From: a bacterium
GTDB taxonomy: Bacteria; SZUA-182; DTGQ01; JAFGSM01
NCBI GenBank assembly: GCA_049472355.1
Contig: JBLIRP010000079.1
Location: forward strand, 1 to 17,375
Length of the DNA: 17,375 nt
Direction: 5' to 3'
Positions 134 through 14,724 of this stretch are shown here, in pieces. Position 1 is the stretch's first letter, and each line of letters opens with the position of its first letter. The notes beneath the pieces are model-generated. The model was given only the letters and a program-made list of their open reading frames with translations. It had not been told where the DNA came from and ran no database searches. A program made the position numbers and the translations under genes.

Positions 134-162
134 TTGACAAAAATAGAACGATGTATTATTTT
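134..162 (+). promoter_or_regulatory. Candidate sigma70 promoter for the hydrogenase-metVF operon
   Basis: Perfect -35 TTGACA (134-139), 17-nt spacer and TATTTT (157-162) in AT-rich intergenic DNA. It would imply a ~320-nt leader before the ATG at 489. Confidence 0.45.
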
Positions 163-488: not shown

Positions 489-1382
489 ATGGCGGCAATC
501 AAGGAAATTCCGGCGGTCTGGATCCAAGGGGGGTCGTGCAGCGGATGTTCGGTGTCCGTTTTGAATGCGGTCGCCCCTTCCATAAAGAACGTGCTCATCG
601 ACGAGGTCGTTCCCGGAAGGCACATCAGCCTCAAGTTTCAGGCCACGGTCATGGCAGGTGCAGGAGAACCCATCATAAAGGTCCTGGAGGATGTGGGGGA
701 GCACAAAAAGGGCGAATTCCTCCTCATCGTCGAGGGGGTGGTCGCAACCAAGGATAATGGTATCTATTGTCGTGTCGGTGAAAGGAATGGCAAGCCCGTG
801 ACATTTTATCAGTGGGTCAAGGACCTTGGCAGCAACGCCCTCGCCGTCATCGCCCTTGGCACCTGCTCCGCATTCGGCGGGATACCCGGAGGAAAACCCA
901 ATCCCACCGGGGTCAAGTCGGTGATGCAGATCTTCAAGGAGGAGGGGATCACCACCCCTCTCATCAACGTTCCCGGCTGCGCTCCACACCCAGACTGGTT
1001 TGTGATGACGGTGGCGGGCATCCTCATCGGCGGTTTGCCCGATCCGGCCAGCCTCGACGAATGGCTCCGTCCCAAGGCATTCTACGGCACCCTCCTCCAT
1101 GAGAACTGCCAGCGCAGGGCGTTTTTTGACGAGGGGAAGTTCGCCAAGAAATTCGGGGACCCGGGCTGCCTCTACGAGCTGGGGTGCAAAGGCCCGATCA
1201 CCTATGCCGACTGCCCGCTTCGCCAGTGGAACAACGGGGTGAACTGGTGCATCAGGTCGGGAATGGGCTGCCAGGGGTGCACCCAGCCGGAGTTTCCCGA
1301 TTTCGGCTCCTTTTACGAGAAACTTACCGATGTTGATCTCCCGAAGATCGGCGAATACTGGAAACAAGCGGAGGGGAAATAG
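489..1382 (+). CDS. [NiFe]-hydrogenase small subunit (HysB/group-1a-like, no Tat signal, probably three [4Fe-4S] clusters)
   Basis: WIQGGSCSGC, GTCSAFGG and PGCAPHP proximal motifs; HENC..C..C distal motif; CKGP..C..NWC..CQGC medial motif. SD GAGGAGG (476-482) precedes ATG 489. An in-frame TGA at 450-452 excludes an upstream Tat leader. Confidence 0.95.
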   Translation: MAAIKEIPAVWIQGGSCSGCSVSVLNAVAPSIKNVLIDEVVPGRHISLKFQATVMAGAGEPIIKVLEDVGEHKKGEFLLIVEGVVATKDNGIYCRVGERNGKPVTFYQWVKDLGSNALAVIALGTCSAFGGIPGGKPNPTGVKSVMQIFKEEGITTPLINVPGCAPHPDWFVMTVAGILIGGLPDPASLDEWLRPKAFYGTLLHENCQRRAFFDEGKFAKKFGDPGCLYELGCKGPITYADCPLRQWNNGVNWCIRSGMGCQGCTQPEFPDFGSFYEKLTDVDLPKIGEYWKQAEGK

Positions 1383-1384
1383 AT

Positions 1385-2944
1385 ATGGCTACCATAAAAA
1401 TAGATCCCATGTCGAGGATCGAAGGGCACCTCAAGGTCGAAGCGGTTGTCGACGGCGGGGTGATCAAGGATGCCACGTGCTCGGGGATGCTGTTCAGGGG
1501 ATTTGAAAAGATCCTCGCAGGCAGGGACCCGCGGGACGCGCAGATCATCACCCAGAGGATATGCGGGGTGTGCAACCACTGCCACACCACCGCGGCAGCC
1601 CTCAACCTGGACAGCGCCTTCGGGATCGCCGACAAGATACCGGATAACGGACGACTGATACGCAACCTCACCATGGCATTCCACCAGGTGCAGGACCACA
1701 TCCTGCACTTTTATCACCTGGCAGCCCTCGACTATGTCGATGTCACCAAGGTGGCGGGCTACAGCGGGAACGACCGCACCCTCAACTCCATAAAGTCGTT
1801 CATCGAGAGGGGCGAGCTTTCCCCCTTTGTCCCGCGATACGAAGGGGACTACCGGTTCCCCGCCCAGGTGGACCAGGAACTGGTGAAACACTACGTGATG
1901 GCGCTGGAGATGAGGCGCAAGGGACACGAGGCAACGGCAGTCCTGGGGGGCAAGGTGCCGCATGCGTGCTCGGTGACACCCGGCGGGGTCACCGAGGTCC
2001 CCACGGTGGACAAGATCGCCAACCTCCTGTGGAGGGCCAAGGAACTCAGGGAGTTCGTCGAGGATGTGTACGTGCCCGATGTCATCAAGGTGGCGGAAAC
2101 CTACAGCGATTACTTCGGCATCGGTAAGGGATGCGGGAGGTATCTCTCCTACGGCATCTTCGACCTGGATGATCCGAATCCCGATTACACCAGGAGGAAG
2201 AGGCTCTTCACCCAGGGTACCACGGCAACGGACCTTTCCCATCGCCCCCTCGACCTTGCCCAGATAAGGGAATGGGTCACCCACTCCTGGTATGAGGAGG
2301 GCGCAAACGGCGCCCATCCCTTCGACGGGGAGACGATGCCCAGCCCGGACAAGAAGGGCGGGTATTCCTGGATCAAGGCCCCGCGTTACAGCGGCGAGAC
2401 CCACGAGGTCGGTCCCCTTGCGCGCATTGCCGTCAGCTACGCGGCAGGCGACAAAAACATCCGGGGGATGGTGGATTCGGTGCTCTCCCATTTCAAGGCA
2501 TCGCCCGATGCGCTCTTTTCCGTGCTGGGCCGCCATGCAGCCCGGGCCCTGTGCGCCCAATACATCGCGCAGAACATCGAGGGATGGGTCCTCGGCCTTA
2601 AGCCGGGTGAACCTGCCTACGTCGAATACAGCATTCCTGACGAGGGGACCGGCGTTGGGATCGTGGATGCCGCCCGGGGGGCCCTCGGCCACTGGATCGT
2701 GATCAAGGAGAAGAAGATCCACAAGTACCAGTGCGTGGTTCCCACCACCTGGAATGCCTCCCCCATGGACGACAAGGGCAAGCACGGGGCCATCGAACAG
2801 GCGCTCATCGGCACGAAGGTCAGGGACAGCGAGAATCCCTTCGAAATCGTCCGGATCGTGCGGTCGTTCGATCCGTGCACCGCGTGTGCCGTTCACCTGT
2901 TGAATCACAAGGGGCGCGAGTTGAGAAGGTACACCATTGCCTAA
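1385..2944 (+). CDS. [NiFe]-hydrogenase large subunit
   Basis: RIEGH, L1 motif RICGVC..H, L2 motif RSFDPCTACAVH followed by a 15-aa cleavable C-terminal extension; also YSWIKAPRY, ARGALGHW and VVPTTWNASP. Confidence 0.97.
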   Translation: MATIKIDPMSRIEGHLKVEAVVDGGVIKDATCSGMLFRGFEKILAGRDPRDAQIITQRICGVCNHCHTTAAALNLDSAFGIADKIPDNGRLIRNLTMAFHQVQDHILHFYHLAALDYVDVTKVAGYSGNDRTLNSIKSFIERGELSPFVPRYEGDYRFPAQVDQELVKHYVMALEMRRKGHEATAVLGGKVPHACSVTPGGVTEVPTVDKIANLLWRAKELREFVEDVYVPDVIKVAETYSDYFGIGKGCGRYLSYGIFDLDDPNPDYTRRKRLFTQGTTATDLSHRPLDLAQIREWVTHSWYEEGANGAHPFDGETMPSPDKKGGYSWIKAPRYSGETHEVGPLARIAVSYAAGDKNIRGMVDSVLSHFKASPDALFSVLGRHAARALCAQYIAQNIEGWVLGLKPGEPAYVEYSIPDEGTGVGIVDAARGALGHWIVIKEKKIHKYQCVVPTTWNASPMDDKGKHGAIEQALIGTKVRDSENPFEIVRIVRSFDPCTACAVHLLNHKGRELRRYTIA

Positions 2945-2961
2945 TAACGAGGAGGATACCG

Positions 2962-3639
2962 ATGATCAGATCAGAGCAGAAGCCCTTTGAAGAGATACAG
3001 GGGTATCTCGATGGGGAGAAAAAGGTCTTCATCCTGGGGTGTGACGGGTGTGCGCAGGCAAGCCAGACCGGAGGCATGCCCCAGGTGATGGAGATGAAGG
3101 AGAAGCTTGAAGGGATCGGCAAAAAGGTGACCGGTTCCTGCGTCATAGATTTCCTGTGCCAGAAGGCGCTTGTTGCCTCGCGACTCCGCGCCTTCGAGGA
3201 TGCGGTGATGAAGGCGGATTCCCTCCTGGTGATGACCTGCGGCATCGGCGTGCAGGCGGTCGCCGCCATGGTGAAAAAGAGGGTGCACCCGGCCTGCAAC
3301 ACCATCCCCCTCGGGGGGAGCCGGGGCGAATGGCGGGGTGAGGAGCGGTGCCTGGAGTGCGGGGATTGCCTCCTCGACTACACCGGGGGGATCTGTCCCC
3401 TGACCGCCTGTTCCAAGCGGCTGATCAACGGCGCCTGCGGCGGCGCCACCAACGGGAACTGCGAGGTGAGCAAGGACAAGCCGTGCGGGTGGGAGTTGAT
3501 CTATAAGCGGGTCAGGGATCTGGGAAGGGTGGACCTGCTGAAGCAGTACATCCCCCCGAAGACATATGGTAAAATGAGGCCGCGGTGGGATCTCCTTGCA
3601 TCATCCATCTGGGCCCTTGAACATACCGAGAACAAATAG
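2962..3639 (+). CDS. metV: Methylenetetrahydrofolate reductase small Fe-S/Zn subunit MetV
   Basis: True start is MIRSEQKPFEEI, after SD GAGGAGG (the ORF-track start at 2731 overlaps the large subunit). GCDGCA, TCGIGVQ and the Cys-rich CLECGDC..GGICPLTACSK..NGACGG..CEV..CGW (MTHFR_C-type domain). Directly upstream of metF. Confidence 0.92.
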   Translation: MIRSEQKPFEEIQGYLDGEKKVFILGCDGCAQASQTGGMPQVMEMKEKLEGIGKKVTGSCVIDFLCQKALVASRLRAFEDAVMKADSLLVMTCGIGVQAVAAMVKKRVHPACNTIPLGGSRGEWRGEERCLECGDCLLDYTGGICPLTACSKRLINGACGGATNGNCEVSKDKPCGWELIYKRVRDLGRVDLLKQYIPPKTYGKMRPRWDLLASSIWALEHTENK

Positions 3640-3657
3640 AGAGGAGGGCACAGGCAC

Positions 3658-4536
3658 ATGGCTCTAAAAGAGGCATTAGAGAGCGGAAAGTTCACCGTCA
3701 CGGCTGAAGTAGGCCCCCTCAAGGGAACCGATACCGCGGAGATACTGGAGAGCGCCGAGCTGTTGCGGGGGAAGGTGGATGGCGCCAACGTGACCGACCA
3801 GCAGAGCGCGGTGATGAGGCTCGGCTCCCTTGCCGTCTCCTCGCTGCTCGTCAAGGAGGGGCTTGACCCCATCTTCCAGATGACCTGCAGGGACCGGAAC
3901 CGGATCGCCATGCAGTCGGACCTGCTCAGCGCACACCTGGCCGGCATCAAAAACGTGCTCGCCATCACCGGGGATTTCCCCACCTTCGGCGATCACCCCG
4001 ATGCAAAGGATGTGTATGACCTGGACTCGGTCCAACTTGTGGCCACCATCGCCAAGATGAACGAAGGGTATGATGTCTCGGGAAACGAGCTCAAGGGGAA
4101 GACCGATTTCTTCATCGGTGGCGTGGTGACGCCCATCATGGACACGGAGGAGGCAGTCGAACTGCAGATCATCAAGATGGAAAAGAAGATCAATGCAGGG
4201 GCCCGCTTCTTCCAGACCCAGGCGGTCTACGACGTGGACATCTTCGCCAAATTCATGAAGCGGGTAAAGGGGTTCGGCGTGCCGGTGCTCGCGGGCGTCA
4301 TCCCGCTGAAGTCGGCCGGTATGGCCAAGTACATGAACAAGAACGTTGCCGGGGTGTTCGTTCCGGACCGGCTCATCGACGAGATGACCAAGGCGGAGGA
4401 CAAGACGGCGACCGGCCTCGGCATGGCCGCCCGGCTCATCAACGACCTCAAGGACCTCTGCCAGGGGGTTCATATCATGGCGATCGGATGGGAGAAAAAG
4501 GTCCCCGAGATCCTCAAGCGTGCGGGCATGGCGTAG
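3658..4536 (+). CDS. metF: 5,10-methylenetetrahydrofolate reductase catalytic subunit MetF
   Basis: VTAEVGPLKG, NVTD, QMTCRDRNRIAMQSDLL, LAITGD, KKINAGARFFQTQ and GVHIMA motifs of the MetFV-type MTHFR. Confidence 0.95.
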   Translation: MALKEALESGKFTVTAEVGPLKGTDTAEILESAELLRGKVDGANVTDQQSAVMRLGSLAVSSLLVKEGLDPIFQMTCRDRNRIAMQSDLLSAHLAGIKNVLAITGDFPTFGDHPDAKDVYDLDSVQLVATIAKMNEGYDVSGNELKGKTDFFIGGVVTPIMDTEEAVELQIIKMEKKINAGARFFQTQAVYDVDIFAKFMKRVKGFGVPVLAGVIPLKSAGMAKYMNKNVAGVFVPDRLIDEMTKAEDKTATGLGMAARLINDLKDLCQGVHIMAIGWEKKVPEILKRAGMA

Positions 4537-4550
4537 TTCAAGGACGGATT

Positions 4551-5000
4551 ATGCGCAAGAAGACGGCCATCATAGGGATCGGCAATCTCATCCTCAAGGA
4601 CGAAGGGGTAGGGGTGCATGCGGTGCAGCGGCTTGAGGGGATGGACCTTCCCCCGAGTATCGATGTCATCGACGGGGGTACGGATGCCATGGATCTTCTG
4701 CCGATGTTCCAGGATTATGAACGGATCATCGTGATCGATGCACTCAAGGCAGGGGGCAGTCCGGGCACCATCTACCGGGTCACCCCCGAGGAGATCATGC
4801 ACGATCGGTCACGCACCCTCTCCCTCCACGAGGTGGGGCTCCTCGACGTTCTCGGCATGGCGCGGCAGCTCGGGGGGCACGGCGAGGTGGTCATCATCGG
4901 CGTGGAACCGAAGGAGATATCGTGCAGCATCGAGCTCTCACCCGAGGTGGAGGCGGAGCTTCCACGGGTGATGGATGCGGTGCTCGCGGAATTGCAGTGA
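4551..5000 (+). CDS. Hydrogenase maturation endopeptidase (HyaD/HybD/HycI family)
   Basis: IGIGNLILKDEGVGVH, DGGT, IVIDA and SLHEVG motifs. Start reassigned to ATG 4551, after the metF stop. Confidence 0.93.
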   Translation: MRKKTAIIGIGNLILKDEGVGVHAVQRLEGMDLPPSIDVIDGGTDAMDLLPMFQDYERIIVIDALKAGGSPGTIYRVTPEEIMHDRSRTLSLHEVGLLDVLGMARQLGGHGEVVIIGVEPKEISCSIELSPEVEAELPRVMDAVLAELQ

Positions 5001-5077
5001 ATCACTCAGGGTCCTATTCCCTGCTGTTTGTGGCGGGGTAGTTCATTTTTACATGAAGCAACTTTTTTTTTCATCTC

Positions 5078-5419
5078 ATGCATGAACTCTCTATAGCCCA
5101 GAGTATGCTCGAGATCATCGAGCAGGAATCCGCCCCCTTCGGCAATGCCAAGGTGTTGTCGGTTACCCTCCGCATAGGGAGATTGACCGGCATTGTGTCC
5201 GATGCCCTCCGGTTCGCCTTTGAGATCATCACCAAGGGAGGCGTGGCAGAGGGGGCAACCCTTTTCATCGAAGAGGTTCCCATTGTGATCAAATGCCATC
5301 AGTGCGGTGAGCTCTTCACCGCCGAGCATCCCTTCATGGTCTGCCCCCGTTGTGAGGGGCTCGATGTTGAGATGATCTCGGGACGGGAGCTTGAGGTGAA
5401 GGACCTTGAAATCGAGTAG
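5078..5419 (+). CDS. hypA: Hydrogenase nickel incorporation protein HypA
   Basis: N-terminal MHELSIA, Zn-finger CxxC..CPxC, and C-terminal GRELEV. Confidence 0.96.
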   Translation: MHELSIAQSMLEIIEQESAPFGNAKVLSVTLRIGRLTGIVSDALRFAFEIITKGGVAEGATLFIEEVPIVIKCHQCGELFTAEHPFMVCPRCEGLDVEMISGRELEVKDLEIE

Positions 5420-5453
5420 GGTGATTTTAACTATATGACATGGATGGATCACG

Positions 5454-6365
5454 ATGAACAAGGAATTGTTCAATACCCGTGAACTGGCGGAATATCTCGA
5501 TATCAACGAGAAGAAGATCTACAGTCTCATCATGGAAAAGGGATTGCCCGCTACCAAGGTAACCGGCAAGTGGCTTTTCCCAAAGCAACTGGTGGATATC
5601 TGGATAGACAACAATATTCGAAACTATCCCTGGATGAAGGAGAAGAAACTGGAGACATTCAGCGAGGCGCTGATCATCGCCGGCAGCAACGACCTGTTTC
5701 TGGCGGACGCACTCTCCCTTTTCCAGGAGAAGCACCGCAATATCCTCCCCCTCTATAGCAGCATAGGAAGCATGAACGGCATCAATGCCCTCAAAAAGGG
5801 GTGGTGCCATATCTGTGCCTCCCATATGCTCCAGAAGGAGGACGAGGAGTACAACCTGTCATATATAAAAGAGGTGTTTAACGAGGATTTCGTGATCGTG
5901 AATTTTGCCTACAGGACCCAGGGACTGATCGTTTCCAAAGCGAATCCTAAGAAGATCGCCGGGATCAAGGACCTGGTGAGACCGGACATAACCATTGTCA
6001 ACCGCCAGTCCGGCACGGGCACCCGGTTCCTCCTGGAATACGAGATGGAAAAAAGCGGGATCGATGCAGCCCGGATCAGGGGATACGACACCATCTGCCT
6101 GAGCCATCTCGACGTGGGTATAGAGGTGCTCTCGAGCAGGGCGGATGCCGGTTTGGGTATCCAGGCAATTGCCCGGATGCTGGGCCTTGATTTCATCCCC
6201 CTGCGCAAGGAGCGGTTCGATCTCATCATCAGGAAGGATACATTCCCTGAGGTCAACGTCCAAACCTTTCTCAAGTTCCTGCGCTCGTCCGATCTCAAGG
6301 AATACAGTGCACGTTTCGGGGGATACGACCTCAGGGACATCGGGCGGATCATGTTCGAGGGTTGA
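5454..6365 (+). CDS. Transcriptional regulator: excisionase-like HTH (HTH_17 type) fused to a molybdate/tungstate-binding PBP-like domain
   Basis: N-terminal TRELAEYLDINEKKIY..LPATKVTGKWLF (Xis-like HTH). C-terminal AGSND, GSMNG, VNRQSGTGTR, H..V..ADAGLG and FIPL..ERFDL, typical of the MoeA/ModE-associated PBP domain. Confidence 0.88.
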   Translation: MNKELFNTRELAEYLDINEKKIYSLIMEKGLPATKVTGKWLFPKQLVDIWIDNNIRNYPWMKEKKLETFSEALIIAGSNDLFLADALSLFQEKHRNILPLYSSIGSMNGINALKKGWCHICASHMLQKEDEEYNLSYIKEVFNEDFVIVNFAYRTQGLIVSKANPKKIAGIKDLVRPDITIVNRQSGTGTRFLLEYEMEKSGIDAARIRGYDTICLSHLDVGIEVLSSRADAGLGIQAIARMLGLDFIPLRKERFDLIIRKDTFPEVNVQTFLKFLRSSDLKEYSARFGGYDLRDIGRIMFEG

Positions 6366-6430
6366 CCGGACACCAATCTTCCCAATAATCGAATTCTCCC
6401 CAATCCCAGCCCGCATCCCAAAATTCTTTA

Positions 6431-6698
6431 CAATACATCAATCACCCTGCTCGACACGGTGCAGTTTTCGCATCTGCCTGCCAATCAAGAATAGTACCGA
6501 TCTCTGCATTCACCCAAGGCTTTTTTTAAATCTGCAAATCCCTCATGAATATTGCCAGTCTCGGCATTCATCAAGGGGCTGCTTTCGCATCTGCCAACAT
6601 TTTCAGAATACCGCCAATCCCAGCAACCAATCGGGTGCGGTTTTCGCATACAGTATCATTCCCAGAATACCGCCAATCCCAGCATTCACCCCAATGCC
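6431..6698. repeat. Degenerate ~58-59 bp tandem repeat, about 4.5 units
   Basis: Units start at 6431, 6489, 6547, 6606 and 6665 ([G/C]AATA...). CAGAATACCGCCAATCCCAGCA is identical at 6604-6625 and 6663-6684. TTTCGCAT recurs at an equivalent offset in three units. Confidence 0.75.
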
Positions 6699-6699
6699 T

Positions 6700-6728
6700 T
6701 GAACCGGCCTTCATCATTTGCCGGTTCA
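6700..6728. other. Inverted repeat/hairpin at the end of the tandem repeat
   Basis: TGAACCGGC (6700-6708) and GCCGGTTCA (6720-6728) form a perfect 9-bp stem with an 11-nt loop; only a short U-run follows. Confidence 0.5.
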
Positions 6729-6852
6729 CCTTTGCCTTGGTGTATTCATGTGTGCCCAACCTGGGTAGACGCCCTGTTCAAGAGGCCATGTCATGAACAA
6801 TGGTAAATGATCGCCGTATGGCAGTATAAAATGCTCTTATTTGTCCTGATAC

Positions 6853-6913
6853 GTTATTATTAGTAATTATTAGTTAATCTTTTATTGACTCGCCACGCTC
6901 TTTGTGCCATAAT
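6853..6913 (+). promoter_or_regulatory. sigma70 promoter of the porin gene with upstream 10-bp-phased direct repeats
   Basis: TTGACT (6885-6890), 17 nt, extended -10 TGcCATAAT (6905-6913). GTTATTATTA-GTAATTATTA-GTTA at 6853-6876. Confidence 0.7.
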
Positions 6914-6951
6914 AGTGTTTTAAAAAATGGAAGGAACCCCTCGGCAATACA

Positions 6952-8334
6952 ATGAAAAACCGCTTGATCTTCCTCATCCTTATGGTTGTGCTTTGTGTAT
7001 CCGTGGTGCGTGTCTCCGGCGCTCATGGGTATCGCATCGAAATGAAGGATGGCTCCGTAGTCGTGAATGAGGGGAATTCAGCACCCGATATCATCGGGGG
7101 AGGGAGGCGCATTACAGAGGTTCGCGGGGGAATGATACCGGGGCCGGACACCGAATCCTCGAGCACAAGGCAAATCGAGCTGAATCTCGGCGGTTCCTTC
7201 ATGGTGGACTATCGTTACTACGAGGAGGATTGCAGGGAAGACAACCGTTTCGACATCCGCAAGGCCAGGTTGCTTTTTACCGGCTCCCCTCACCCCATGC
7301 TCCGGTATCGCATGGAGCTTGAGTTCCAGGGAAATGACCAGAAGAATCTCATGGATGGCTACGGAGAGGTCCTGATTCACCCGGCACTAAAATTCAGGGC
7401 AGGACAGTTCAAGGTGCCCTTCAGCCTCGAGTGGCAGACCCCGGATCAGGCGATCCTTTTCGCCGAGCGATCAATCGGATATTCACTTGCCCCGGGAAGG
7501 GACGTGGGGCTTATGTGCCATGGCTCGCTCATGAATGAGGGGGTTCATTACTCCCTCGGGATCGTCAATGGAGACGGCACTGACGGCTCGACCCGGGGGG
7601 GACAGCGGGATGATCCCGAATATGCCGCACGTCTGGTGCTGTGCCCCTTTGCAGCAATCGGGGGGGAGTGGCTGCGCCTGTTTCAGTTGGGCGGCTCCGT
7701 CACCCATGCGAGGATCGACCTTGCGAACGTAGATATGGAGGTGAAGAGCACGGGTATGACAGGAACGAATCGAAGCCTCTATGTTCTGAATGCGAATACC
7801 AAGTTCGGTGTGCTGCAAGGTGTTGAGGAACGAAGACGACATGGGCTGGAGGGGGGATGGGCCTGGGGGCCCGTTGCCGTGTATGGTGAATATGTGGAGT
7901 TTAAGTACGCGGGGCTGGAGCCGTCCGGCAAACCGCCCCAGGATGCGGAATTTTCCTCATGGTATGTATCGGCCCTGTTATTTCTCACCGGGGAATCGCC
8001 CCAATTCAAGGGAGGGGTCCTGCAGCCGGTTTTCCCCAAACGGGACCTCGATCGAAACAAAGGGACCTTGGGAGCCATCGGGGTAGCCACCCGAATGGAG
8101 CACTTCTCCGGCGATGAGCGCTGGATCAAGCAGGATGCCCATGTGTCGGTGCGGGAGGCGGATGCATTCAGCGTGGCGCTCAACTGGATTCCCTATCCCA
8201 TGGTACGCCTGATGCTCGATTACACCAGGACCGATCTGTCGGACCCCATTCTGGTCAGGCGGAATCCCGACGGAAGCATCAACTACATCGAAGAGGAGCA
8301 GGTCTCCACGCTTCGATTATATATCTCATTCTAA
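6952..8334 (+). CDS. Outer-membrane anion-selective porin, OprO/OprP (Porin_O_P) family
   Basis: Signal peptide; FDIRKARL, GQFKVPFSLE, FAERS, PGRDVG and WYV...LTGES motifs; alternating beta-strand C-terminus ending in Phe (LRLYISF). Confidence 0.85.
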   Translation: MKNRLIFLILMVVLCVSVVRVSGAHGYRIEMKDGSVVVNEGNSAPDIIGGGRRITEVRGGMIPGPDTESSSTRQIELNLGGSFMVDYRYYEEDCREDNRFDIRKARLLFTGSPHPMLRYRMELEFQGNDQKNLMDGYGEVLIHPALKFRAGQFKVPFSLEWQTPDQAILFAERSIGYSLAPGRDVGLMCHGSLMNEGVHYSLGIVNGDGTDGSTRGGQRDDPEYAARLVLCPFAAIGGEWLRLFQLGGSVTHARIDLANVDMEVKSTGMTGTNRSLYVLNANTKFGVLQGVEERRRHGLEGGWAWGPVAVYGEYVEFKYAGLEPSGKPPQDAEFSSWYVSALLFLTGESPQFKGGVLQPVFPKRDLDRNKGTLGAIGVATRMEHFSGDERWIKQDAHVSVREADAFSVALNWIPYPMVRLMLDYTRTDLSDPILVRRNPDGSINYIEEEQVSTLRLYISF

Positions 8335-8649
8335 ATAAAAGGATAGCTTGATAATCATTAAAGCAATTCATGAAGAGATATTGCCTTGATATTGAGGGTC
8401 CTCCATACCGGATACAAGATGGATTCTGTACCATCAAATCTGAGGAAAGAATAAAGGAATTGTATATACGATGGAAGGATTCCCTGTATTGGGAATTTAT
8501 GTAAAAAGAGGGATTCTATATATAAGATCCTATATATATAAAAGAGAGATTCTACATATTTGTTAATGTGGATGGAGGTGGGGGAGTATCGATTTTTGTG
8601 AAAGTTCGGGTGATGGTATTTTCGGGTTTTTTTTAAAAAGGAGTAAACG

Positions 8650-10227
8650 ATGACCAGGAAGATTGTGCTGATATGTTGTATTGTTGCCGCCCTTTTGGTA
8701 TCCTCCACCGCCTTTTCCGCATACCACCACGAGGGGGAAATGGACTCGGATAATTTTCTTGCCGCTTATCCTGAAAAGACAGGCACGAAGCTCGATCACT
8801 GCGCCCTTTGTCACAGCGGGGGCACGTATATAGATGCCAAAAGCCAGGAGGTAAGCCTGGGTAGCTGCCAGTGGTGCCACTATTCCTATGGGTATGACGG
8901 GAGCGGCAACATCGCCTACACCCTGAACAACTTTGGAAAGGATTACTACTTCAACGGAAGGGATGCCCTTGCCATAGGAAAGATCGACAACTTCGATTCG
9001 GACGGCGACGGATACTCGAACAAGGCGGAGATCCAGGCGGACCGCTTCCCCGGAAACGCAAAGGACGATCCCTCCAAGAAGATCGCACCCTCTCGTGTAT
9101 ACACCAGGGCGGATCTGGAGGCAATGCCCCAACACACCCAGTTCCTGTTGATGAATACCTCACGAAGCGGGGATTTCTACGCCGAGTACTCCGGGGTTTC
9201 CATGGAGTACCTGCTGGAGGACGCCGGCATATCGGATTCCGCCACCGGCATCCTGGTATACGCCCCTGACGGATGGTCCAACTACCATCCCCTTGATGCG
9301 GAGCCGGACCCGGAGCTGTACCATGTGAATGGGGTATATCCTGCGGCAAGTTTTCACTACGACGAAGAGGCCGACGAGGCGCAAAGCGCGATAGGATGGT
9401 GCGACTACAGCGCCCCCTCCCGCGCAGGCCGCAATAACAACGACCCCATCTATGTCGAGGGGGGACTCAGGATGATCCTTGCCGTAAAGCGGGAGGGTGT
9501 GGATTTGGATGAGGGCGCTCTCACCGATGAAAACAAGCTGGACGGCGAGGGCCCGTTCAGGCTCGTACCCCCGCAGAAGAATCCGGGGCCGCCTGACCAG
9601 TCCTCGAGGGCCGCCAATCAGGACGTCATATGGCCCTTTAATTGGGATTGGGATCACAATGCAGGGGCCTCCTCACGCACGGTGACCATCATCAAGGTCC
9701 TGCCCCTGCCGCCCGGGACCACCGACATCGACGTGCTGGAGGCGGGGTGGCAGTTTGTGGACCAGGAAAAGATCATCATATACGGTGCAATCGACGATCC
9801 CAATGCACCGGAGACCGGGGGAGGGGGAAGCACCACGCCCCCCAGATCGTCCTATTCCCTGTTCGGCGGGTTGTTTCCCTACGGCGGGTACAGCACGATA
9901 CCGGGCGTATACTCATTCGGGCCTGCTTACGCCGGCAGCGGTATCGCGGGCATCAACCTCGGGATGTATCCCTCCTATGGCTATGCCGGCATTATCCCCT
10001 CGACAGGGGCATATCAGGGGAGCTTCATCCCGGGCATGACATTCGGAGGAATTCCCGGCGCCTACTCCATGGGCAGTTCGTACGGCACGCTGTTCGGTAA
10101 TGTCAGGAGCCCCTATTTGAGCATGCCATGGAGTACCTTCGGGAACACACTGGGCACCTATCAGTTCGGCACCCTGCGCTGGAACCAGTTTTTCGGCAGT
10201 AGCCCGCTCTCCTTGTATTCCTTTTAG
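8650..10227 (+). CDS. Secreted diheme c-type cytochrome ('GEGP motif' type) with a sulfite-oxidase-like molybdopterin-binding-type region and a low-complexity C-terminal tail
   Basis: Sec signal ending AFSA. CxxCH motifs CALCH (8800-8814) and CQWCH (8866-8880); DSDGDG loop; YSGV..LL..AG, APDGWS, MILA..REG and GEGPFRLVPP pattern. SD AAGGAG. Confidence 0.8.
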   Translation: MTRKIVLICCIVAALLVSSTAFSAYHHEGEMDSDNFLAAYPEKTGTKLDHCALCHSGGTYIDAKSQEVSLGSCQWCHYSYGYDGSGNIAYTLNNFGKDYYFNGRDALAIGKIDNFDSDGDGYSNKAEIQADRFPGNAKDDPSKKIAPSRVYTRADLEAMPQHTQFLLMNTSRSGDFYAEYSGVSMEYLLEDAGISDSATGILVYAPDGWSNYHPLDAEPDPELYHVNGVYPAASFHYDEEADEAQSAIGWCDYSAPSRAGRNNNDPIYVEGGLRMILAVKREGVDLDEGALTDENKLDGEGPFRLVPPQKNPGPPDQSSRAANQDVIWPFNWDWDHNAGASSRTVTIIKVLPLPPGTTDIDVLEAGWQFVDQEKIIIYGAIDDPNAPETGGGGSTTPPRSSYSLFGGLFPYGGYSTIPGVYSFGPAYAGSGIAGINLGMYPSYGYAGIIPSTGAYQGSFIPGMTFGGIPGAYSMGSSYGTLFGNVRSPYLSMPWSTFGNTLGTYQFGTLRWNQFFGSSPLSLYSF

Positions 10228-10244
10228 AAGGGGAGCGGTTTTAT
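10204..10244 (+). terminator. Intrinsic terminator of the diheme protein gene; the stop codon lies in the loop
   Basis: CCGCTCTCCTT (10204-10214) pairs with AAGGGGAGCGG (10228-10238, one G-U pair) and is followed by TTTTAT. Confidence 0.55.
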
Positions 10245-10255
10245 AATGAATGCCC

Positions 10256-10287
10256 TTTTCCGGGCGACCCGTTGGTCGCCCGGAAAA
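10256..10287. other. Perfect 14-bp inverted repeat between convergent genes
   Basis: TTTTCCGGGCGACC-CGTT-GGTCGCCCGGAAAA. T-runs lie 5' and A-runs 3' of the stem on both strands, so this is not canonical terminator polarity. Confidence 0.6.
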
Positions 10288-10296
10288 AGAATAATG

Positions 10297-10326
10297 AATA
10301 AAGGTTCCAAACACCTCCGTTTGGAA
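10297..10326 (-). terminator. Possible terminator for the tupBC-mop transcript
   Basis: TTCCAAAC/GTTTGGAA 8-bp stem (10305-10326); on the minus strand it is followed by CCTTTATT. Confidence 0.35.
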
Positions 10327-10373
10327 ATGGCACTGGCTGAGAGGCAATGGGGAAGGGATCGCGAGCCCTTCCC

Positions 10374-10586
10374 CTAATCCTCGATACCGATGATGACATT
10401 CGTCGCCTTGACGATGGCGAATACATCCTTTCCTTCCCGGAGTCCGAGGTTTTCCGCGGAGGTCTTGGTGATGATGGAGGTGATTTCCACCCCATCCGCC
10501 AGCTTCACCACCACCTCGGAGTTGACCGCACCGGGGATGATCTTCTTGACCTTGCCCTTCAATACATTCCGGGCACTGAGCTTCAT
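10374..10586 (-). CDS. mop: Molybdenum-pterin-binding protein Mop (single TOBE domain, molbindin)
   Basis: MKLSARNVLKGKV...ITSIIT..S...LGL..G..V.AIVKATNV is the classical Mop signature; 70 aa; SD AGGAGG. Confidence 0.93.
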   Translation of the reverse strand: MKLSARNVLKGKVKKIIPGAVNSEVVVKLADGVEITSIITKTSAENLGLREGKDVFAIVKATNVIIGIED

Positions 10587-10685
10587 GGTGTCCCTCCTTT
10601 CGAATGGATGGATGACCCTTTAACCCTCACCTGTATGCTTGCATATATAGAGTATGATCCTCCGAGGGAAATAATGGAATCTCCG

Positions 10686-11714
10686 TTACAGTGGCCGTAC
10701 CGAGGTGGCCTTGAAGGTGAGATATACATGGGAGCCCACGGTGAGCCCCATCTCCTGCAAGGAGACGGGGGTGATGAACACCCTGAATACCTCCCTGGAG
10801 CGCACTTCCAGCATGACCCTTCCCCTGTGGTCGGCGATCGCGGTGATCACGCCCTCGAAGAGGTTGCGGGCGCTCGAGGAGAAGGGCTCCCTGGAGACGA
10901 TGATGTCCTCCGGGTCGATGGTGATGTGGGAATATTCCTCATGCGGCAGATCGTCCGAGATCCATACCTGCATGTCACCGGAAATGAAGCGTGGCCCCTT
11001 GTCGGTGTGCATGACTGTGCCTGCAAAGAGGTTGTGCATGGTGGAAGGGATCAGCGCCCCCTCGAAGAGGGAAAACACGGTCTGCGCCATACGGTAGGCC
11101 TGGGAGAGGTTATGGGAGGTGAGCACGATGGTGGTCCCCCTTTCCCTGTTGATCCGCTCGATGATCTGCTCGAAGCGGCGCATGTTGCGCACGTCCACGT
11201 TCGCCGTGGGCTCGTCCAGGAACAGCACCACCGGGTCGATGGCGAGGCCGCGTGCCAGGGCGACCAGTTGAGACTCCCCGCCCGAGAGCTCCCGCGCCCT
11301 TCTTTTCTCAAATCCGTCAAGACCCACCAGCCGGAGTGCCTCCCGTGCCCCGGCCTCGCATTCCCTCCGGGACATCCCCCGGGCGCGCAGTCCGTAGGAC
11401 ACGTTCTTCAGAACGGAGGTATTGAAAAGGTAAGGGGTCTGGAGCACCATGGTCATGGACCGCCCTGCATCGGTGTCTGGAGAACCGCCGTGTTCCACCT
11501 GCCGTCCGTCGAACACGATCTCACCCTTGGTAGGCCTGAGGATGAGGCTCATGATGGAGAGGAGGGTGGTCTTTCCCGAGCCGTTCGGTCCCACCACCGC
11601 GTAGGTGCATCCCTTATCGAAAGCCAGGTGTGGGATGGACAGAACCTTTCTGCCGTTGTAGTAATGTTTGATTCCCCTGATCTCGAGGATATGCGTGGCC
11701 ATCACTGCGTTCAC
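10686..11714 (-). CDS. tupC: Tungstate ABC transporter ATP-binding protein TupC with C-terminal TOBE domain
   Basis: Walker A GPNGSGKT, LSGGE signature, FLDEPTAN Walker B, SHN H-loop, and SSARN..FKAT TOBE domain. The GTG start overlaps the tupB stop (GTGA); alternative ATG at 11702. Confidence 0.88.
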   Translation of the reverse strand: MNAVMATHILEIRGIKHYYNGRKVLSIPHLAFDKGCTYAVVGPNGSGKTTLLSIMSLILRPTKGEIVFDGRQVEHGGSPDTDAGRSMTMVLQTPYLFNTSVLKNVSYGLRARGMSRRECEAGAREALRLVGLDGFEKRRARELSGGESQLVALARGLAIDPVVLFLDEPTANVDVRNMRRFEQIIERINRERGTTIVLTSHNLSQAYRMAQTVFSLFEGALIPSTMHNLFAGTVMHTDKGPRFISGDMQVWISDDLPHEEYSHITIDPEDIIVSREPFSSSARNLFEGVITAIADHRGRVMLEVRSREVFRVFITPVSLQEMGLTVGSHVYLTFKATSVRPL

Positions 11715-12400
11715 CCCTTGATCTGGAAGTAGTGAAAAAGGATGTTGATGGTAAAGACCACCAGCAGGAGGAAGAATCCCAGGGCCAGTCCCAGACCGAA
11801 CTCCCCCTTGCTCGTCTCCAGCGCGATCGCCGTGGTCATGGTACGGGTGTAGAATCGGATATTCCCCCCCAGCATCATCGCTGAACCCACCTCGGACACG
11901 GCACGTCCGTATCCGACAATGATGGCGGCAAGGAGGGCGAAGCGGGCCTCCATGAGGATGGTCCAGGTGGTCAGGAGTCTTCCCGCCCCCATCGTTTTTG
12001 CGGTCAAGAGGGCCCGGGGGTCCACTGATTGCACGGCAGCCACGGTCAGGTTGGTGATCACGGGAAGTGAGAGCACGAACTCCCCGAGGATGACCGCATG
12101 AGGTGTGAACATCAGGCTCATGAACCCCAGGGGGGCGCTTCGGGAGAGGAAGGAATACCCGATGAGCCCCACCACTACCGTGGGCAGGGCCATGGCCGTA
12201 TTCAGCACGGTTATGAGGATGGACCGTCCCCTAAACCGCTTTACCCCCACCAGGAAACCGAACGGCACCCCTGCGATGACGGCGAAGATGGTGGCGATGA
12301 GGGAAAACCTGAGGGAGCGAAGCACGATCCCGTAGACCTCCTGGTCAAGGGAGATGATCAGGTGGATGGATTCGACAAATGCATGCCACAGGAAGTGCAT
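11711..12400 (-). CDS. tupB: Tungstate ABC transporter permease TupB
   Basis: LNT.MALPTVVVGL, GRAVSEVGSAMMLGGNI and TRTMTTAIALETSKGEF motifs characteristic of TupB. Confidence 0.92.
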   Translation of the reverse strand: MHFLWHAFVESIHLIISLDQEVYGIVLRSLRFSLIATIFAVIAGVPFGFLVGVKRFRGRSILITVLNTAMALPTVVVGLIGYSFLSRSAPLGFMSLMFTPHAVILGEFVLSLPVITNLTVAAVQSVDPRALLTAKTMGAGRLLTTWTILMEARFALLAAIIVGYGRAVSEVGSAMMLGGNIRFYTRTMTTAIALETSKGEFGLGLALGFFLLLVVFTINILFHYFQIKG

Positions 12401-12423
12401 CGCATAATCTCCGTCAAGGACTG

Positions 12424-12475
12424 AAAATAACCATCAATAACCTTTATTGACAATGAAACCCTTTTACGCCATAAT
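12424..12475. promoter_or_regulatory. Back-to-back divergent sigma70 promoters for tupA (+) and tupBC (-)
   Basis: Plus strand: TTGACA (12447-12452)-17-CATAAT (12470-12475). Minus strand: TTGTCA (12453-12448)-18-TATTTT (12429-12424). AATAACC direct repeats 10 bp apart (12426, 12436). Confidence 0.65.
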
Positions 12476-12602
12476 ACTATCTCTCCAATCCGAATGCAAT
12501 CCGGCCATAGGTCTGTAAAGGGGGTGATGGGAAGGCTATCACACCAGTCATCCTGGATCAATCATTACCATAACACTAACACATAGATGGAGGATCTGTG
12601 AA

Positions 12603-13421
12603 ATGAGAAGGTATGTCGCGCTTCTTCTGGCAATCGGTATCGTATTCGGACTCTGCACGGCGGTCCACGCGCAGGTCCAGAGGCTCAAGGTCTCCAGCAC
12701 CACCAGCACGGACAACACCGGGCTGTTCGCTGCACTGAACCCTCCCTTTGAAAAGATGTTCAATTGTACGGTGGACGTCATCGCCCAGGGGACCGGTAAG
12801 GCGCTCAAGACCGGGGAGATGGGTGATTGTGACGTGGTGTTCGTTCACTCCCGGCCTGCAGAGGATGCGTTTGTGGCGGCCGGATACGGCGTCAACCGCC
12901 GCGATGTCATGTACAACGACTTCGTCATTGTGGGTCCGGAAGGCGATCCCGCAGGCATCAGGGGACTCAAGGATGCGGGCGAGGCCCTGAAAAAAATCAC
13001 CCAGAGCCAGTCACGGTTCGTTTCCCGGGGGGATGATTCAGGCACCCACAAAAAGGAAAAGGCCATCTGGGGGAATACGGGAATCACCCCCCAGGGCCAG
13101 TGGTATGTGGAGGCAGGTCAGGGCATGGGCGCGGTGCTCCAGATAGCATTCGAGATGAATGCCTATACGCTCACCGATCGCGGCACCTACCTCGCGTACA
13201 AGGAAAAGATCACCCTCCCCATCCTCGTCGAGGGGGACCCGGTCCTGTTCAATCCTTACGGAATCATTGCGGTGAATCCCGCACGGCATCCCCAGGTGAG
13301 CTATGTCCTGGCCATGGCCTATATCGGATGGGTGACCTCCCCTGAAGGGCAGCGGATCATCCGTGAGTTCGGGAAGGAGACGTTCGGCCAGCCCCTTTTC
13401 ATCCCGGTCGCAATCCCTTAA
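12603..13421 (+). CDS. tupA: Tungstate ABC transporter substrate-binding protein TupA
   Basis: Signal peptide (VHA|Q); STTST.NTGL, GTGKAL, DVVFVH, VMYNDFVIVGP, FVSRGDDSGTH, GQGMG, YTLTDRGTY and LFNPYGIIAVNP motifs. Confidence 0.94.
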   Translation: MRRYVALLLAIGIVFGLCTAVHAQVQRLKVSSTTSTDNTGLFAALNPPFEKMFNCTVDVIAQGTGKALKTGEMGDCDVVFVHSRPAEDAFVAAGYGVNRRDVMYNDFVIVGPEGDPAGIRGLKDAGEALKKITQSQSRFVSRGDDSGTHKKEKAIWGNTGITPQGQWYVEAGQGMGAVLQIAFEMNAYTLTDRGTYLAYKEKITLPILVEGDPVLFNPYGIIAVNPARHPQVSYVLAMAYIGWVTSPEGQRIIREFGKETFGQPLFIPVAIP

Positions 13422-13531
13422 TCAGGAACCCTGTGCCCCGAGTGCAGGCAGCCGTGCGTAGTTGACAGCCTCCACTGAATGTGGGTAGACTTGATGGGTC
13501 ATCACGTTTGTCCATTTCCGGGGGCCGGTTG

Positions 13532-14038: not shown

Positions 14039-14070
14039 CACCACCTATCCCTCCGGATACGGGTCGGCGT

Positions 14071-14253
14071 TCAGCGGGAAGATGGGGCAAGGTCCTGCCT
14101 GCTCAGTAACGCCTTGCACCCTGAACACCTCCCGTGCTCCTCGTCACTCCATATTTCTACCTCCCCGCCGCATTTGGGGCACCTGAAAATCTCCGGAAAG
14201 CGTTTTTTTGCCGGATCATCACCGGGGCAATGCTGATCGATCGCCTTTTTCAT
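14071..14253 (-). CDS. Small Cys-rich zinc-ribbon protein (60 aa)
   Basis: MKKAIDQHCPG..CPKCGGEVEIWSDE...CSGC. Strong SD AAGGAGG before ATG 14253. Confidence 0.75.
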   Translation of the reverse strand: MKKAIDQHCPGDDPAKKRFPEIFRCPKCGGEVEIWSDEEHGRCSGCKALLSRQDLAPSSR

Positions 14254-14696: not shown

Positions 14697-14724
14697 TGAA
14701 TATAAATAATCAGTTGTCCGATAA
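14697..14724 (+). promoter_or_regulatory. Possible sigma28 (FliA) promoter for the chemotaxis genes
   Basis: TGAA-N16-TCCGATAA versus consensus TAAA-N15-GCCGATAA; lies upstream of cheW. Confidence 0.3.

Follow-up and report, generated by a model that had tools for sequence, protein, structure and literature searches.

A leaderless [NiFe] hydrogenase encoded in one operon with MetV-MetF, and its possible role in H2-dependent reduction of methylene-THF

Genes for the two subunits of a methylene-THF reductase, metV and metF, lie here between the structural genes of a [NiFe] hydrogenase and the hydrogenase's own maturation genes, which raises the question of whether this enzyme hands its electrons directly to the reductase. 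The operon was analysed in a window of 17,375 nucleotides, which is the whole stretch of DNA under study, and its genes, identified by a Pfam scan and from their translations, are all on the same strand (Table 1).

Table 1. Features of the hydrogenase-metVF operon and its flanks
Feature	Position	Strand	Basis or remark
Promoter-like site TTGACA-17-TATTTT	134..162	+	10/12 consensus matches; weak; candidate operon promoter
[NiFe] small subunit (SSU), 297 aa	489..1382	+	PF01058 + PF14720
[NiFe] large subunit (LSU), 519 aa	1385..2944	+	PF00374, 512 bits
MetV, Fe-S subunit of MetFV-type methylene-THF reductase, 225 aa	2962..3639	+	PF12225
MetF, catalytic flavoprotein subunit of methylene-THF reductase, 292 aa	3658..4536	+	PF02219, 142 bits
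HycI/HybD-type hydrogenase maturation endopeptidase, 149 aa	4551..5000	+	PF01750
Terminator-like hairpin, 8 pairs, weak T tail	5019..5038	+	3' of protease gene
HypA nickel metallochaperone, 113 aa	5078..5419	+	PF01155

Organisation and conservation of the operon

The gene order and coordinates given in an earlier note on this DNA were confirmed, as were its intergenic gaps of 2, 17, 18 and 14 nt from SSU to the protease; a gap of 77 nt then precedes hypA, and each start codon is preceded by a Shine-Dalgarno-like GGAGG. The hairpin within this last gap is possibly the end of a five-gene unit, but it is a weak indication, terminator-like sites numbering 9 versus 5.9 +/- 2.6 in shuffles. Promoter-like sites numbered 5 versus 3.1 +/- 1.7 in shuffles, and the upstream match is thus not significant by itself. 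Contigs from two RNA libraries of one study cover parts of SSU, LSU, metV and metF, one of them spanning SSU to LSU (1326-1553) and another LSU to metV (2685-3152), which cannot prove a single transcript; the metV-metF and metF-protease junctions were unbridged among the 24 of 79 RNA-library records listed. Because the contig begins 488 nt before SSU, it lacks the upstream neighbour gene. Another contig of the same genome (C65) ends with purD-purM-iPGM, and these genes also lie upstream of the operon in two related loci (L012 and L013), with iPGM upstream in a third (L011).

The synteny search proposed in the earlier note was run and showed that the arrangement is not confined to one genome but spans at least 32 species-level genomes from two phyla. 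All 21 informative related loci, with LSUs 73-93% identical, carry SSU-LSU-metV-metF, and in a sample of 401 genomes from another phylum 23 of the 24 matches to the MetV subfamily have LSU directly upstream and metF downstream. The linkage holds down to 57% identity for LSU and 52% for MetV, and on these counts the arrangement is far beyond chance. In one genome, G224, metV-metF-protease-hypAB and SSU-LSU are on different contigs. A protease homologue follows metF in 17 of the 21 related loci; hypA-hypB-hypF-hypD come next in L014, L019, L021, L027, L030, L031 and L032, and hypA-hypB in L026 and L033.

The neighbouring genes point to the acetyl-CoA pathway. One subclade (66-69%) reads fhs-folD-hydrogenase-metVF, with folD upstream in 7/7 loci and fhs in 5/5, pta-ackA or an ADP-forming acetyl-CoA synthetase is upstream in L026 and L025, and acsB was found in all five carrier genomes tested. 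The window's own genome contains a second metVF inside an acs cluster, so the operon copy is not the sole route. The Wood-Ljungdahl link drawn in the earlier note is supported by these genes. Against the proposed role, neither folD nor acetate kinase was found in this 87.5%-complete genome. A role in methionine synthesis, also suggested there, is less likely than one in the Wood-Ljungdahl pathway.

Subunits of the hydrogenase and of the reductase

The SSU starts where mature periplasmic small subunits begin, and an in-frame TGA at positions 450-452 closes its reading frame, so that a Tat leader cannot be encoded before it. The same start was found in 20/20 complete relatives, none with a Tat leader, and the linked small subunits of L129 and L130 likewise have none; an RR (Tat) leader is present in 21/21 outgroup small subunits. 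The 12 invariant cysteines and His204 of the SSU suffice for three Fe-S clusters, and the protein ends in a clade-specific C-terminal tail. Its best PDB match is a [NiFeSe] small subunit (4kl8_S, 2.7e-78). The LSU carries CxxC pairs at 60-63 and 498-501 (DPCTACAVH, Cys rather than Sec) and a 15-aa C-terminal extension for proteolytic maturation, and it too matches periplasmic [NiFeSe] subunits best (7e-128), whereas Mvh structures are matched at the N-terminus only (E ~1e-29 to 1e-33).

In a quick ML tree a branch with SH-aLRT 94 sets the metVF-linked LSUs (35 rows) apart, and their sister group consists of Tat-bearing, mostly selenocysteine-type group-1a enzymes. The nearest non-linked relatives from genomes are 43-52% identical in LSU, and 14 have an in-frame TGA; the closest non-linked LSU overall, in G356, is 56% identical. 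The hydrogenase most likely evolved from periplasmic group-1a ([NiFeSe]-like) enzymes by losing the Tat leader. The earlier description of a group-1-like, cytoplasmic hydrogenase free of leader, anchor and cytochrome b is supported.

MetV has 13 invariant cysteines and an NGACGG motif in the alignment. Compared with three MetV paralogues that are not hydrogenase-linked, members of its subfamily have lost Cys34 and gained Cys112, and they carry an RGEWRG motif and a C-terminal tail ending in WALE. MetF, which distantly matches solved methylene-THF reductases (E ~1e-9 to 1e-11), shares 50% and 43% identity with the other two MetF proteins of the genome. On one occasion a different MetF lineage has taken its place, with the hydrogenase and MetV remaining as a pair, which fits MetV as the docking partner.

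Electron path and alternative readings

A leaderless hydrogenase in a conserved operon with MetVF suggests that H2 directly drives one step of the acetyl-CoA pathway, and the likeliest reading, to which we give about an even chance, is that the products of the five genes form a soluble, cytoplasmic complex of the [NiFe] hydrogenase with MetV-MetF. H2 would be split at the Ni-Fe site of LSU and the electrons would pass through the three Fe-S clusters of SSU, then reach the Fe-S cluster(s) of MetV and finally the MetF flavin, where methylene-THF would be reduced; NAD(P)H or ferredoxin would be unneeded. That MetFV by itself can be fed by low-potential one-electron carriers is known from the C. 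ljungdahlii enzyme (PMC8515935). The sequences establish the gene content, the missing leader, the conserved synteny and the link to Wood-Ljungdahl genes, whereas the complex itself, the route of the electrons and their direction are inferred. The potentials are -414 mV for H+/H2 and about -200 mV for methylene-/methyl-THF, which by arithmetic gives a standard free energy of ~ -41 kJ/mol. At 1 Pa H2 the H+/H2 potential would be near -266 mV, leaving only ~ -13 kJ/mol, so that a direct link would not be wasteful at sediment H2 levels.

The docking of SSU on MetV proposed in the earlier note was addressed by complex prediction, which gave a median ipSAE of 0.57 (runs 0.68, 0.56 and 0.57) against 0.01 for the best of three controls. 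According to the tool, predictions with scores in this range are mostly wrong when the pairing was not already likely. The partner pLDDT was at least 83 and contacts agreed by at least 78% between runs. The tool's mark is reached by 116/157 solved complexes and 2/215 mismatched pairs, but at ipSAE values up to 0.60 only 18/157 solved complexes pass, together with both passing mismatches. As SSU and MetV were folded without LSU, the LSU-facing interface was left exposed, and the score came without interface output. The tool rates the prediction as weak support for direct docking.

Hydrogenase and MetVF might instead be two arms of a larger bifurcating complex with HdrA, which holds the bifurcating flavin, and MvhD, both encoded elsewhere in the genome; two H2 would then reduce methylene-THF as the high-potential and ferredoxin as the low-potential acceptor, much as in the methanogen MvhAGD-HdrABC or the six-subunit MetFV-HdrABC-MvhD of Moorella. 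We consider this unlikely. The absence of Hdr and MvhD emphasised earlier is true of the window, where the Pfam scan detected no Hdr, MvhD, RnfC, cytochrome b or membrane anchor domain among 19 ORFs, but it does not extend to all relatives or to the rest of the genome. Genes for a 948-aa HdrA-like protein and MvhD(-Fer4) end 78-82 nt before SSU on the same strand in L024, L029 and L030, and in L027 hdrA-mvhD is upstream on the same strand with a PNPOx-like gene in between, so that extra subunits may take part. The four loci belong to two distinct regions of the LSU tree, L027 and L030 also have a CCG-domain HdrB-like gene, and the window's own genome has HdrA-MvhD pairs on two contigs (C72 and C83) that are 39-48% identical to those of L027. 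However, hdr and mvhD are neither in nor beside the operon here or in its closest relatives (L011-L013), and Hdr is adjacent in only 4 of the 25 loci with upstream DNA (18 in the first set and 7 in the fhs-folD subclade). The SSU is group-1-like and not MvhG-like, the LSU matches to Mvh structures are weak, and MvhD is not known to contact any small subunit of group 1. An Acetothermia cluster of MetVF-HdrA-MvhD with MvhAG elsewhere has been proposed (PMC9586279), which speaks for the larger complex.

It seems quite unlikely that the two enzymes are co-regulated but unwired, the hydrogenase reducing ferredoxin, flavodoxin or thioredoxin as a soluble carrier from which a normal two-subunit MetFV is supplied, with the operon securing joint expression only. 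The reduction of ferredoxin by H2 is uphill at low H2, the Pfam scan revealed no carrier gene in the operon, and metVF stands between the structural genes and the protease gene at gaps of 14-18 nt, as is usual for subunits that are produced together. The co-occurrence of LSU and MetV (23/24 and 21/21) and the joint fall of their identities, from 93/97% to 57/53%, also count against it, whereas the weak docking result and the split contigs of G224, in which the two halves are separable, count for it. Also in its favour, purified MetFV of C. ljungdahlii accepts electrons in vitro from ferredoxin, flavodoxin or thioredoxin that a separate hydrogenase has reduced (PMC8515935).

More doubtful still is that the same complex runs in reverse, oxidising methyl-THF and releasing H2 for acetyl-CoA or methyl-group oxidation by the reverse Wood-Ljungdahl pathway, the H2 being taken up by a syntrophic partner or, through hydrogen cycling, by a periplasmic uptake hydrogenase. 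[NiFe] enzymes are reversible, and from the potentials given above a high methyl-/methylene-THF ratio would bring the reaction near equilibrium at ~1 Pa H2, but the standard free energy of H2 formation is ~ +41 kJ/mol. Methyl-THF oxidation is the bottleneck of the reverse pathway (compare PMC10689502). The genome encodes a second group-1-type hydrogenase on contig C94 (40% identical, with the SSU N-terminus beyond the contig edge). Some carriers, G099 and G109, are likely sulfate reducers, their dsrA scoring higher than the family cut-off, yet no dsrA was found above it in 3/5 carriers tested, including the window's genome, and the upstream pta-ackA/acd and fhs-folD genes are at least as consistent with a reductive, acetogenic direction.

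Comparison with known systems

Both hydrogenase subunits find their best sequence matches in the periplasmic group 1a [NiFeSe]/[NiFe] enzymes of Desulfovibrio vulgaris and Desulfomicrobium baculatum (5jsu, 2wpn, 4kl8 and 1cc1), with which they share the SSU C-terminal Fe-S domain PF14720, the LSU C-terminal extension and an own endopeptidase. Unlike these, the present enzyme is cytoplasmic, lacks the Tat leader and a cytochrome partner, has Cys in place of Sec and has MetVF as its neighbour. The methanogen MvhAGD-HdrABC (PDB 5odc) and the HDCR of Acetobacterium woodii each connect a cytoplasmic hydrogenase directly to a C1 reductase by way of Fe-S subunits. The proposed complex would resemble them in working only and is a member of neither family: Mvh belongs to group 3c and matches the LSU N-terminus only, and the HDCR hydrogenase is of the [FeFe] type, unlike the [NiFe] enzyme here.

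H2 is also the ultimate donor for methylene-THF reduction in Sporomusa ovata membranes, where a Tat-exported, cytochrome b-linked periplasmic hydrogenase feeds a MetVF-Hdr-MvhD complex through quinone (PMC9430772), whereas a soluble, direct link is proposed here. The Moorella thermoacetica MetFV-HdrABC-MvhD complex likewise joins an added electron-input module to a MetFV core, and hdrA-mvhD (with a CCG-domain gene in some) stands beside hydrogenase-metVF in the four related loci; its donor is NADH, at HdrA, while the window has no Hdr or MvhD and the added module is the hydrogenase (PMC8515935 for the Moorella complex). The five published reductase types (E. coli type, 2S, 3S, 6S and X with NuoEFG) include none with a hydrogenase (PMC8515935). 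The 2S MetFV of C. ljungdahlii is similar in its MetF (PF02219) and MetV (PF12225), in metV directly upstream of metF, and in a Cys-rich MetV with an NGxCGG motif that draws on low-potential Fe-S donors without an NAD(P)H-binding subunit (PMC8515935). Here, however, the pair is inside a [NiFe] hydrogenase operon, MetV lacks Cys34 and has Cys112 and a C-terminal tail, and the proposed donor is a bound hydrogenase and not free ferredoxin.

The novelty claimed in the earlier note did not hold, as a 2024 paper (PMC11287216) already places a group 1a hydrogenase beside MetVF and draws the same inference in one sentence. That account concerns another phylum, and its passages on these genes make no mention of the missing Tat leader, of conservation across lineages or of Hdr-linked variants. 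In the Ca. Bipolaricaulia MAGs that it describes, from two OTUs, the group 1a hydrogenase HysAB adjoins MetVF, which, compared by description, is the same gene adjacency as that of the operon analysed here.

The hydrogenase-metVF operon and its cover in RNA libraries

The six genes of the operon lie on the plus strand in the order proposed in the earlier note, SSU (small subunit)-LSU (large subunit)-metV-metF-protease-hypA, and both order and positions were confirmed by Pfam scans and translations. The intergenic gaps from SSU through hypA measure 2, 17, 18, 14 and 77 nt, and a GGAGG-like site is present 5' of every start. Promoter and terminator scans of the region gave totals not above chance.

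Features of the window, followed by the genes found upstream of the block in related loci (L-handles)
Feature	Position	Strand	Evidence, remark or locus
[NiFe]-hydrogenase small subunit, 297 aa	489-1382	+	PF01058 + PF14720 (Pfam scan, translation)
[NiFe]-hydrogenase large subunit, 519 aa	1385-2944	+	PF00374, 512 bits
MetV, 225 aa	2962-3639	+	PF12225, 104 bits
MetF, 292 aa	3658-4536	+	PF02219, 142 bits, profile positions 2-287 of 287
HycI-type maturation protease	4551-5000	+	Pfam scan, translation
HypA	5078-5419	+	Pfam scan, translation
Promoter-like site	134-162		scan as a whole no better than chance
Terminator-like hairpin	5019-5038		just 3' of protease gene; scan as a whole no better than chance
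HTH_17 + PBP_like regulator	5454-6365		directly 3' of hypA
Porin	6952-8334
First ORF	8650-10227		without Pfam match
Second ORF	10347-11732		without Pfam match
ABC permease	11711-12400	-
PBP_like_2 binding protein	12603-13421
iPGM (plus purD-purM in L012, L013)	upstream		L011-L013
Formate dehydrogenase	upstream		L019, L021, L028
Second metV or metF, or gcvH-lplA-lipA	upstream		L014, L015, L018, L034
pta-ackA	upstream		L026
ADP-forming acetyl-CoA synthetase	upstream		L025
hdrA-mvhD	directly upstream, same strand		L024, L027, L029, L030

Beyond hypA, the regulator, the ABC permease and the PBP_like_2 protein look like an uptake and regulation set for an oxyanion (molybdate, tungstate or phosphate). 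In region 8388-10348 of L011, a relative at 93% identity, the homologue of the second ORF of region 6952-11732 immediately follows the regulator, so the porin gene and the first ORF were either inserted here or deleted in L011.

Of the sampled words, 63% were present in one and 55% in the other of two metatranscriptome libraries, both belonging to the same study. RNA-library contigs, which do not prove a single transcript and may reflect DNA carry-over, cover parts of all four hydrogenase and metVF genes. One of them (1326-1553) bridges SSU to LSU and another (2685-3152) LSU to metV; the metV-metF and metF-protease junctions were unbridged among the matches listed (24 of 79 RNA-library records). 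Bins 5643-6076, covered in the DNA run X1, had zero cover in the RNA libraries X3 and X5, a gap that hints that the contigs are not DNA carry-over but alone proves nothing.

Conservation and neighbourhood of the block

The synteny search suggested in the earlier note showed that the adjacency is kept. A one-genome-per-species scan returned 24 loci with an LSU 73-93% identical to that of the window, the next matches being at ~40%. Both metV and metF directly follow LSU on the same strand in all 21 loci with DNA beyond LSU, and 17 of them also have a protease gene after metF. A second set, defined by matches to the MetV subfamily (E <= 1e-75), comprised 24 of 401 sampled genomes; LSU lies directly upstream of metV and metF downstream in 23 of the 24, down to 52% identity for MetV and 57% for LSU. 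These counts rule out a one-genome oddity. In the sole exception, genome G224, the block is spread over two contigs (loci L128 and L024), with metV-metF-protease-hypA-hypB lying on the first and hdrA-mvhD-SSU-LSU at an end of the second, which could be a genuine split or an assembly join; the metV-metF half sits behind glyS, which is on the other strand.

The block is thus present in at least 32 species-level genomes besides that of the window (21 first-set loci and 11 of lower identity, the sets overlapping), and more than 120 metagenome protein clusters match at >=66% identity, one of them labelled Chloroflexota. The phylum of the window is represented by just 20 genomes in the collection, and in its genus only three further genomes have an orthologue. 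As the window's clade is nested among sequences from another phylum in the LSU tree, it is likely that the block was transferred as a unit from one phylum to another.

The upstream neighbours vary, and since contig C65 of the window's genome ends in iPGM, the upstream gene there is probably iPGM, as in L011-L013. In L019, L021 and L028 the formate dehydrogenase alpha subunit appears as two ORFs ~50 nt apart, an interruption that would fit an in-frame stop (perhaps a selenocysteine codon); fdhB and fdhE come next. The phosphotransacetylase gene that precedes ackA in L026 (418-1454) is broken into two overlapping ORFs, perhaps by a frameshift or a sequencing error. In a subclade with LSU at 66-69% identity the order is fhs-folD-SSU-LSU-metV-metF-sensor kinase, with folD adjoining in 7 of 7 loci and fhs in all 5 with enough DNA. 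There (L130, 1336-5766; L154-L159) the kinase has a Cache domain, and after it come a response regulator and a further metV-metF pair. On contig C51 of the window's genome (L010, 3713-6297) a lone metF is flanked by a histidine kinase on one side and by two response regulators on the other, so that MTHFR genes repeatedly adjoin two-component systems.

Wood-Ljungdahl genes were sought in the carriers, the genomes holding the block. acsB was found in all five tested, and dsrA was above the cut-off in two of the five but not in the window's genome, which is 87.5% complete. The check for acs, fhs and folD proposed earlier gave a divided answer for this genome: an acs cluster, containing a second metVF, and fhs are present, together with a third, lone metF and two RnfD-family genes; folD (PF02882), like acetate kinase (PF00871), was not found and may be missed at this completeness. 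The acs cluster (contig C138, locus L009, 3492-13998) reads cooC-folE-gcvH-metV-metF-cooC-acsE-acsD-acsC, followed by NuoE-like, NuoF-like and GltD/NfnB-like genes, and its metV-metF may be of the 'X type' described in the available part of PMC8515935. At its start (2-1358) the same contig encodes the C-terminal end of a further [NiFe] large subunit, along with a protease. Contig C72 (L152) carries an Hdr-type cluster at 1904-15142, with HdrA-like fusions of 669, 1539 and 1104 aa and MvhD, FrhB/FdhB-like and HdrC-like proteins, and at 16-20 kb a separate, Mvh-like locus of MvhD, large subunit and protease.

Type of the hydrogenase and its possible link to MetV

The large subunit, of PF00374 fold, has its Ni-Fe CxxC pairs at 60-63 and 498-501 and a 15-residue C-terminal extension; with the C-terminal Fe-S domain of the SSU, these features mark the enzyme as probably of group 1 (1a-like). 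The closest PDB matches are periplasmic [NiFeSe]/[NiFe] enzymes of Desulfovibrio and Desulfomicrobium (LSU 7e-128, SSU 2.7e-78). The C-terminal motif of the window's LSU, DPCTACAVH, has Cys at the DPUxxC position in place of the selenocysteine of the [NiFeSe] type. Twelve Cys and His204 of the SSU are invariant in an alignment of 19 sequences and are presumably ligands of particular clusters among the three. Mvh structures match LSU residues 2-118 only, the SSU carries a group-1/2 C-terminal domain, and the MvhA/MvhG-type subunits with MvhD that define group 3c were not found in the window.

The absence of a Tat leader, anchor and cytochrome b, remarked on in the earlier note, was borne out. 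An in-frame TGA at 450-452 closes the SSU frame 12 codons 5' of the start, so a Tat leader cannot be encoded; this stop and the same start in relatives rule out a mis-called start hiding a leader. None was found in 20 of 20 complete linked SSUs (those with metVF directly after LSU), nor in loci L129 and L130. A twin-arginine (RR) leader is present in all 21 non-linked SSUs with a readable N-terminus, that of genome G356 among them. The SSU tail is hydrophilic, and Pfam scans of 19 window ORFs detected no anchor domain and no cytochrome (c3 or b), Hdr, MvhD or RnfC domain.

A further survey of LSUs took in a sample of 401 genomes, all from one carrier's phylum. Those 57-81% identical to the query are MetVF-linked, with two exceptions, G363 (contig cut) and G224 (metVF on another contig). 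The single non-linked LSU at 56% is that of G356; the remainder are 43-52% identical, 14 with an in-frame TGA as in selenocysteine enzymes. In a maximum-likelihood tree of 58 LSUs (quick search only; two genomes entered twice; L022 and L024 counted as linked though both contigs stop at LSU), a branch (SH-aLRT 94) sets the 35 linked rows apart and G356 is their sister (96); the neighbouring group-1 enzymes have Tat leaders and, for the most part, Sec. The simplest reading would be one loss of export along with the gain of metVF. The G356 locus (L127, C13:14000-27000) has the order LSU-protease-SSU (Tat leader, long C-terminal tail)-Fe-S protein, with a Fer4_22/FAD/NAD-binding protein close by; a reading of this hydrogenase as soluble, paired with an FNR-like protein, was dropped, since its SSU bears the RR leader.

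With a TIM-barrel MetF and metV 18 nt before metF, the window's MetVF has the sequence characters of a MetFV-type methylene-THF reductase and is predicted to act with flavin and Fe-S. The MetV motif NGACGG (N156, G157, C159, G160 and G161 invariant) may be set beside the NGPCGG named for MetV in the part of PMC8515935 available, and 13 Cys of MetV are invariant. Compared with three non-linked paralogues, linked MetV lacks Cys34 and has Cys112 and an RGEWRG motif. Most linked MetV end in a WALE tail, and linked SSUs have a conserved C-terminal tail, which exceeds in length that of the periplasmic relative L133. Co-variation of these tails was rejected as evidence of partnership, WALE of MetV occurring in the main and the 66-69% clades and the SSU tail PKIGEYW being confined to the main clade, where most members have it; the SSU of L027 reads PKIGES instead. 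The MetF beside the hydrogenase is of more than one lineage: G109 and G143 have a copy that groups with lone MetF paralogues (support 100), and the LSU and MetV of both genomes still fall within the linked clades. Such an exchange of MetF agrees with a role of MetV as the hydrogenase's partner.

Prediction of an SSU + MetV complex, with LSU left out of the model, gave a median ipSAE of 0.57 (runs 0.68, 0.56 and 0.57) against 0.01 for the best control, with partner pLDDT >=83 and at least 78% of contacts shared between runs; no interface was returned. This modelling lends weak support to a complex. The AlphaFold2 model of MetV has a mean pLDDT of 65 and is confident in its N-terminal domain (1-117) alone. 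Against the PDB, Foldseek gave generic Rossmann-like alpha/beta domains and no hit with E <= 0.001, and the sequence search spurious repeat-protein matches alone, so neither provided a structural precedent for docking.

Possible routes of electrons and relation to known systems

There is about an even chance that the operon product is a soluble H2:methylene-THF oxidoreductase, as the earlier note had proposed. The Ni-Fe site would deliver electrons via the three SSU clusters to the MetV cluster(s), and these to the MetF flavin. From textbook potentials, reduction of methylene-THF by H2 yields about -41 kJ/mol under standard conditions and about -13 kJ/mol at 1 Pa H2; with so little left, direct coupling would be sensible in sediments. 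The same complex running in reverse and evolving H2 appears improbable. Co-regulation only, with electrons travelling via a soluble carrier, is unlikely.

The claim that the operon is free of hdr, mvhD and rnfC genes holds for the window, whose ORFs include neither hdrA, hdrBC and mvhD encoded with metVF, as in the six-subunit MetFV-HdrABC-MvhD type, nor the RnfC or Complex1_51K domain of the three-subunit MetFV-RnfC2 type; L011-L013 likewise lack Hdr and MvhD. It fails for the four loci with hdrA-mvhD, where SSU is directly preceded by genes for an HdrA-like protein of 948 aa and a fusion of MvhD with ferredoxin. Farther upstream, L027 and L030 each have a CCG-domain gene; L027 also has a PNPOx-like gene. 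In this part of the clade the hdrA-mvhD-hydSL-metVF block might encode an H2-dependent, flavin-based bifurcating methylene-THF reductase, in which ferredoxin would be reduced from H2 with methylene-THF as high-potential acceptor. The window enzyme would then be either a simplified version of it without bifurcation or one that takes on HdrA-MvhD from other loci of the genome; a bifurcating complex is rather unlikely.

The direct H2:methylene-THF oxidoreductase had been presented as a new electron-input module, a claim of novelty that is not supported in this form. In Great Salt Lake MAGs of Ca. Bipolaricaulia a group 1a hydrogenase (HysAB) adjoins MetVF, and one sentence in the available part of PMC11287216 gives both this adjacency and the same inference. 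No other mention was found in full-text searches of openly accessible main texts, including the available parts of PMC10553843, PMC9430772, PMC5736913, PMC7325909, PMC9586279, PMC10689502 and bioRxiv 10.1101/2025.01.07.631696. Judged from gene order, the hydrogenase-metVF module is real and conserved, and is a further case of an arrangement already in print. Added here are the Tat-bearing sister group, the fhs-folD- and hdrA-mvhD-linked variants, the MetF swap, the RNA-library cover and the print precedent. The clade offers a defined four-protein target, and its Hdr-linked relatives a candidate for a new bifurcation reaction. Direct H2 input would explain how the methyl branch is driven in uncultured sediment anaerobes at very low H2.

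Among known systems, S. ovata reduces methylene-THF with H2 via a membrane chain (PMC9430772, available part). The MTHFR classification in the accessible part of PMC8515935 comprises the E. coli type, 2S, 3S (RnfC2), 6S (HdrABC-MvhD) and X (NuoEFG), without a hydrogenase type. A hydrogenase bound directly to MetVF would, if so, be an additional input module for MTHFR, and the hdrA-mvhD-hydSL-metVF block, if it does bifurcate, would be a bacterial, folate-based counterpart of Mvh-Hdr.
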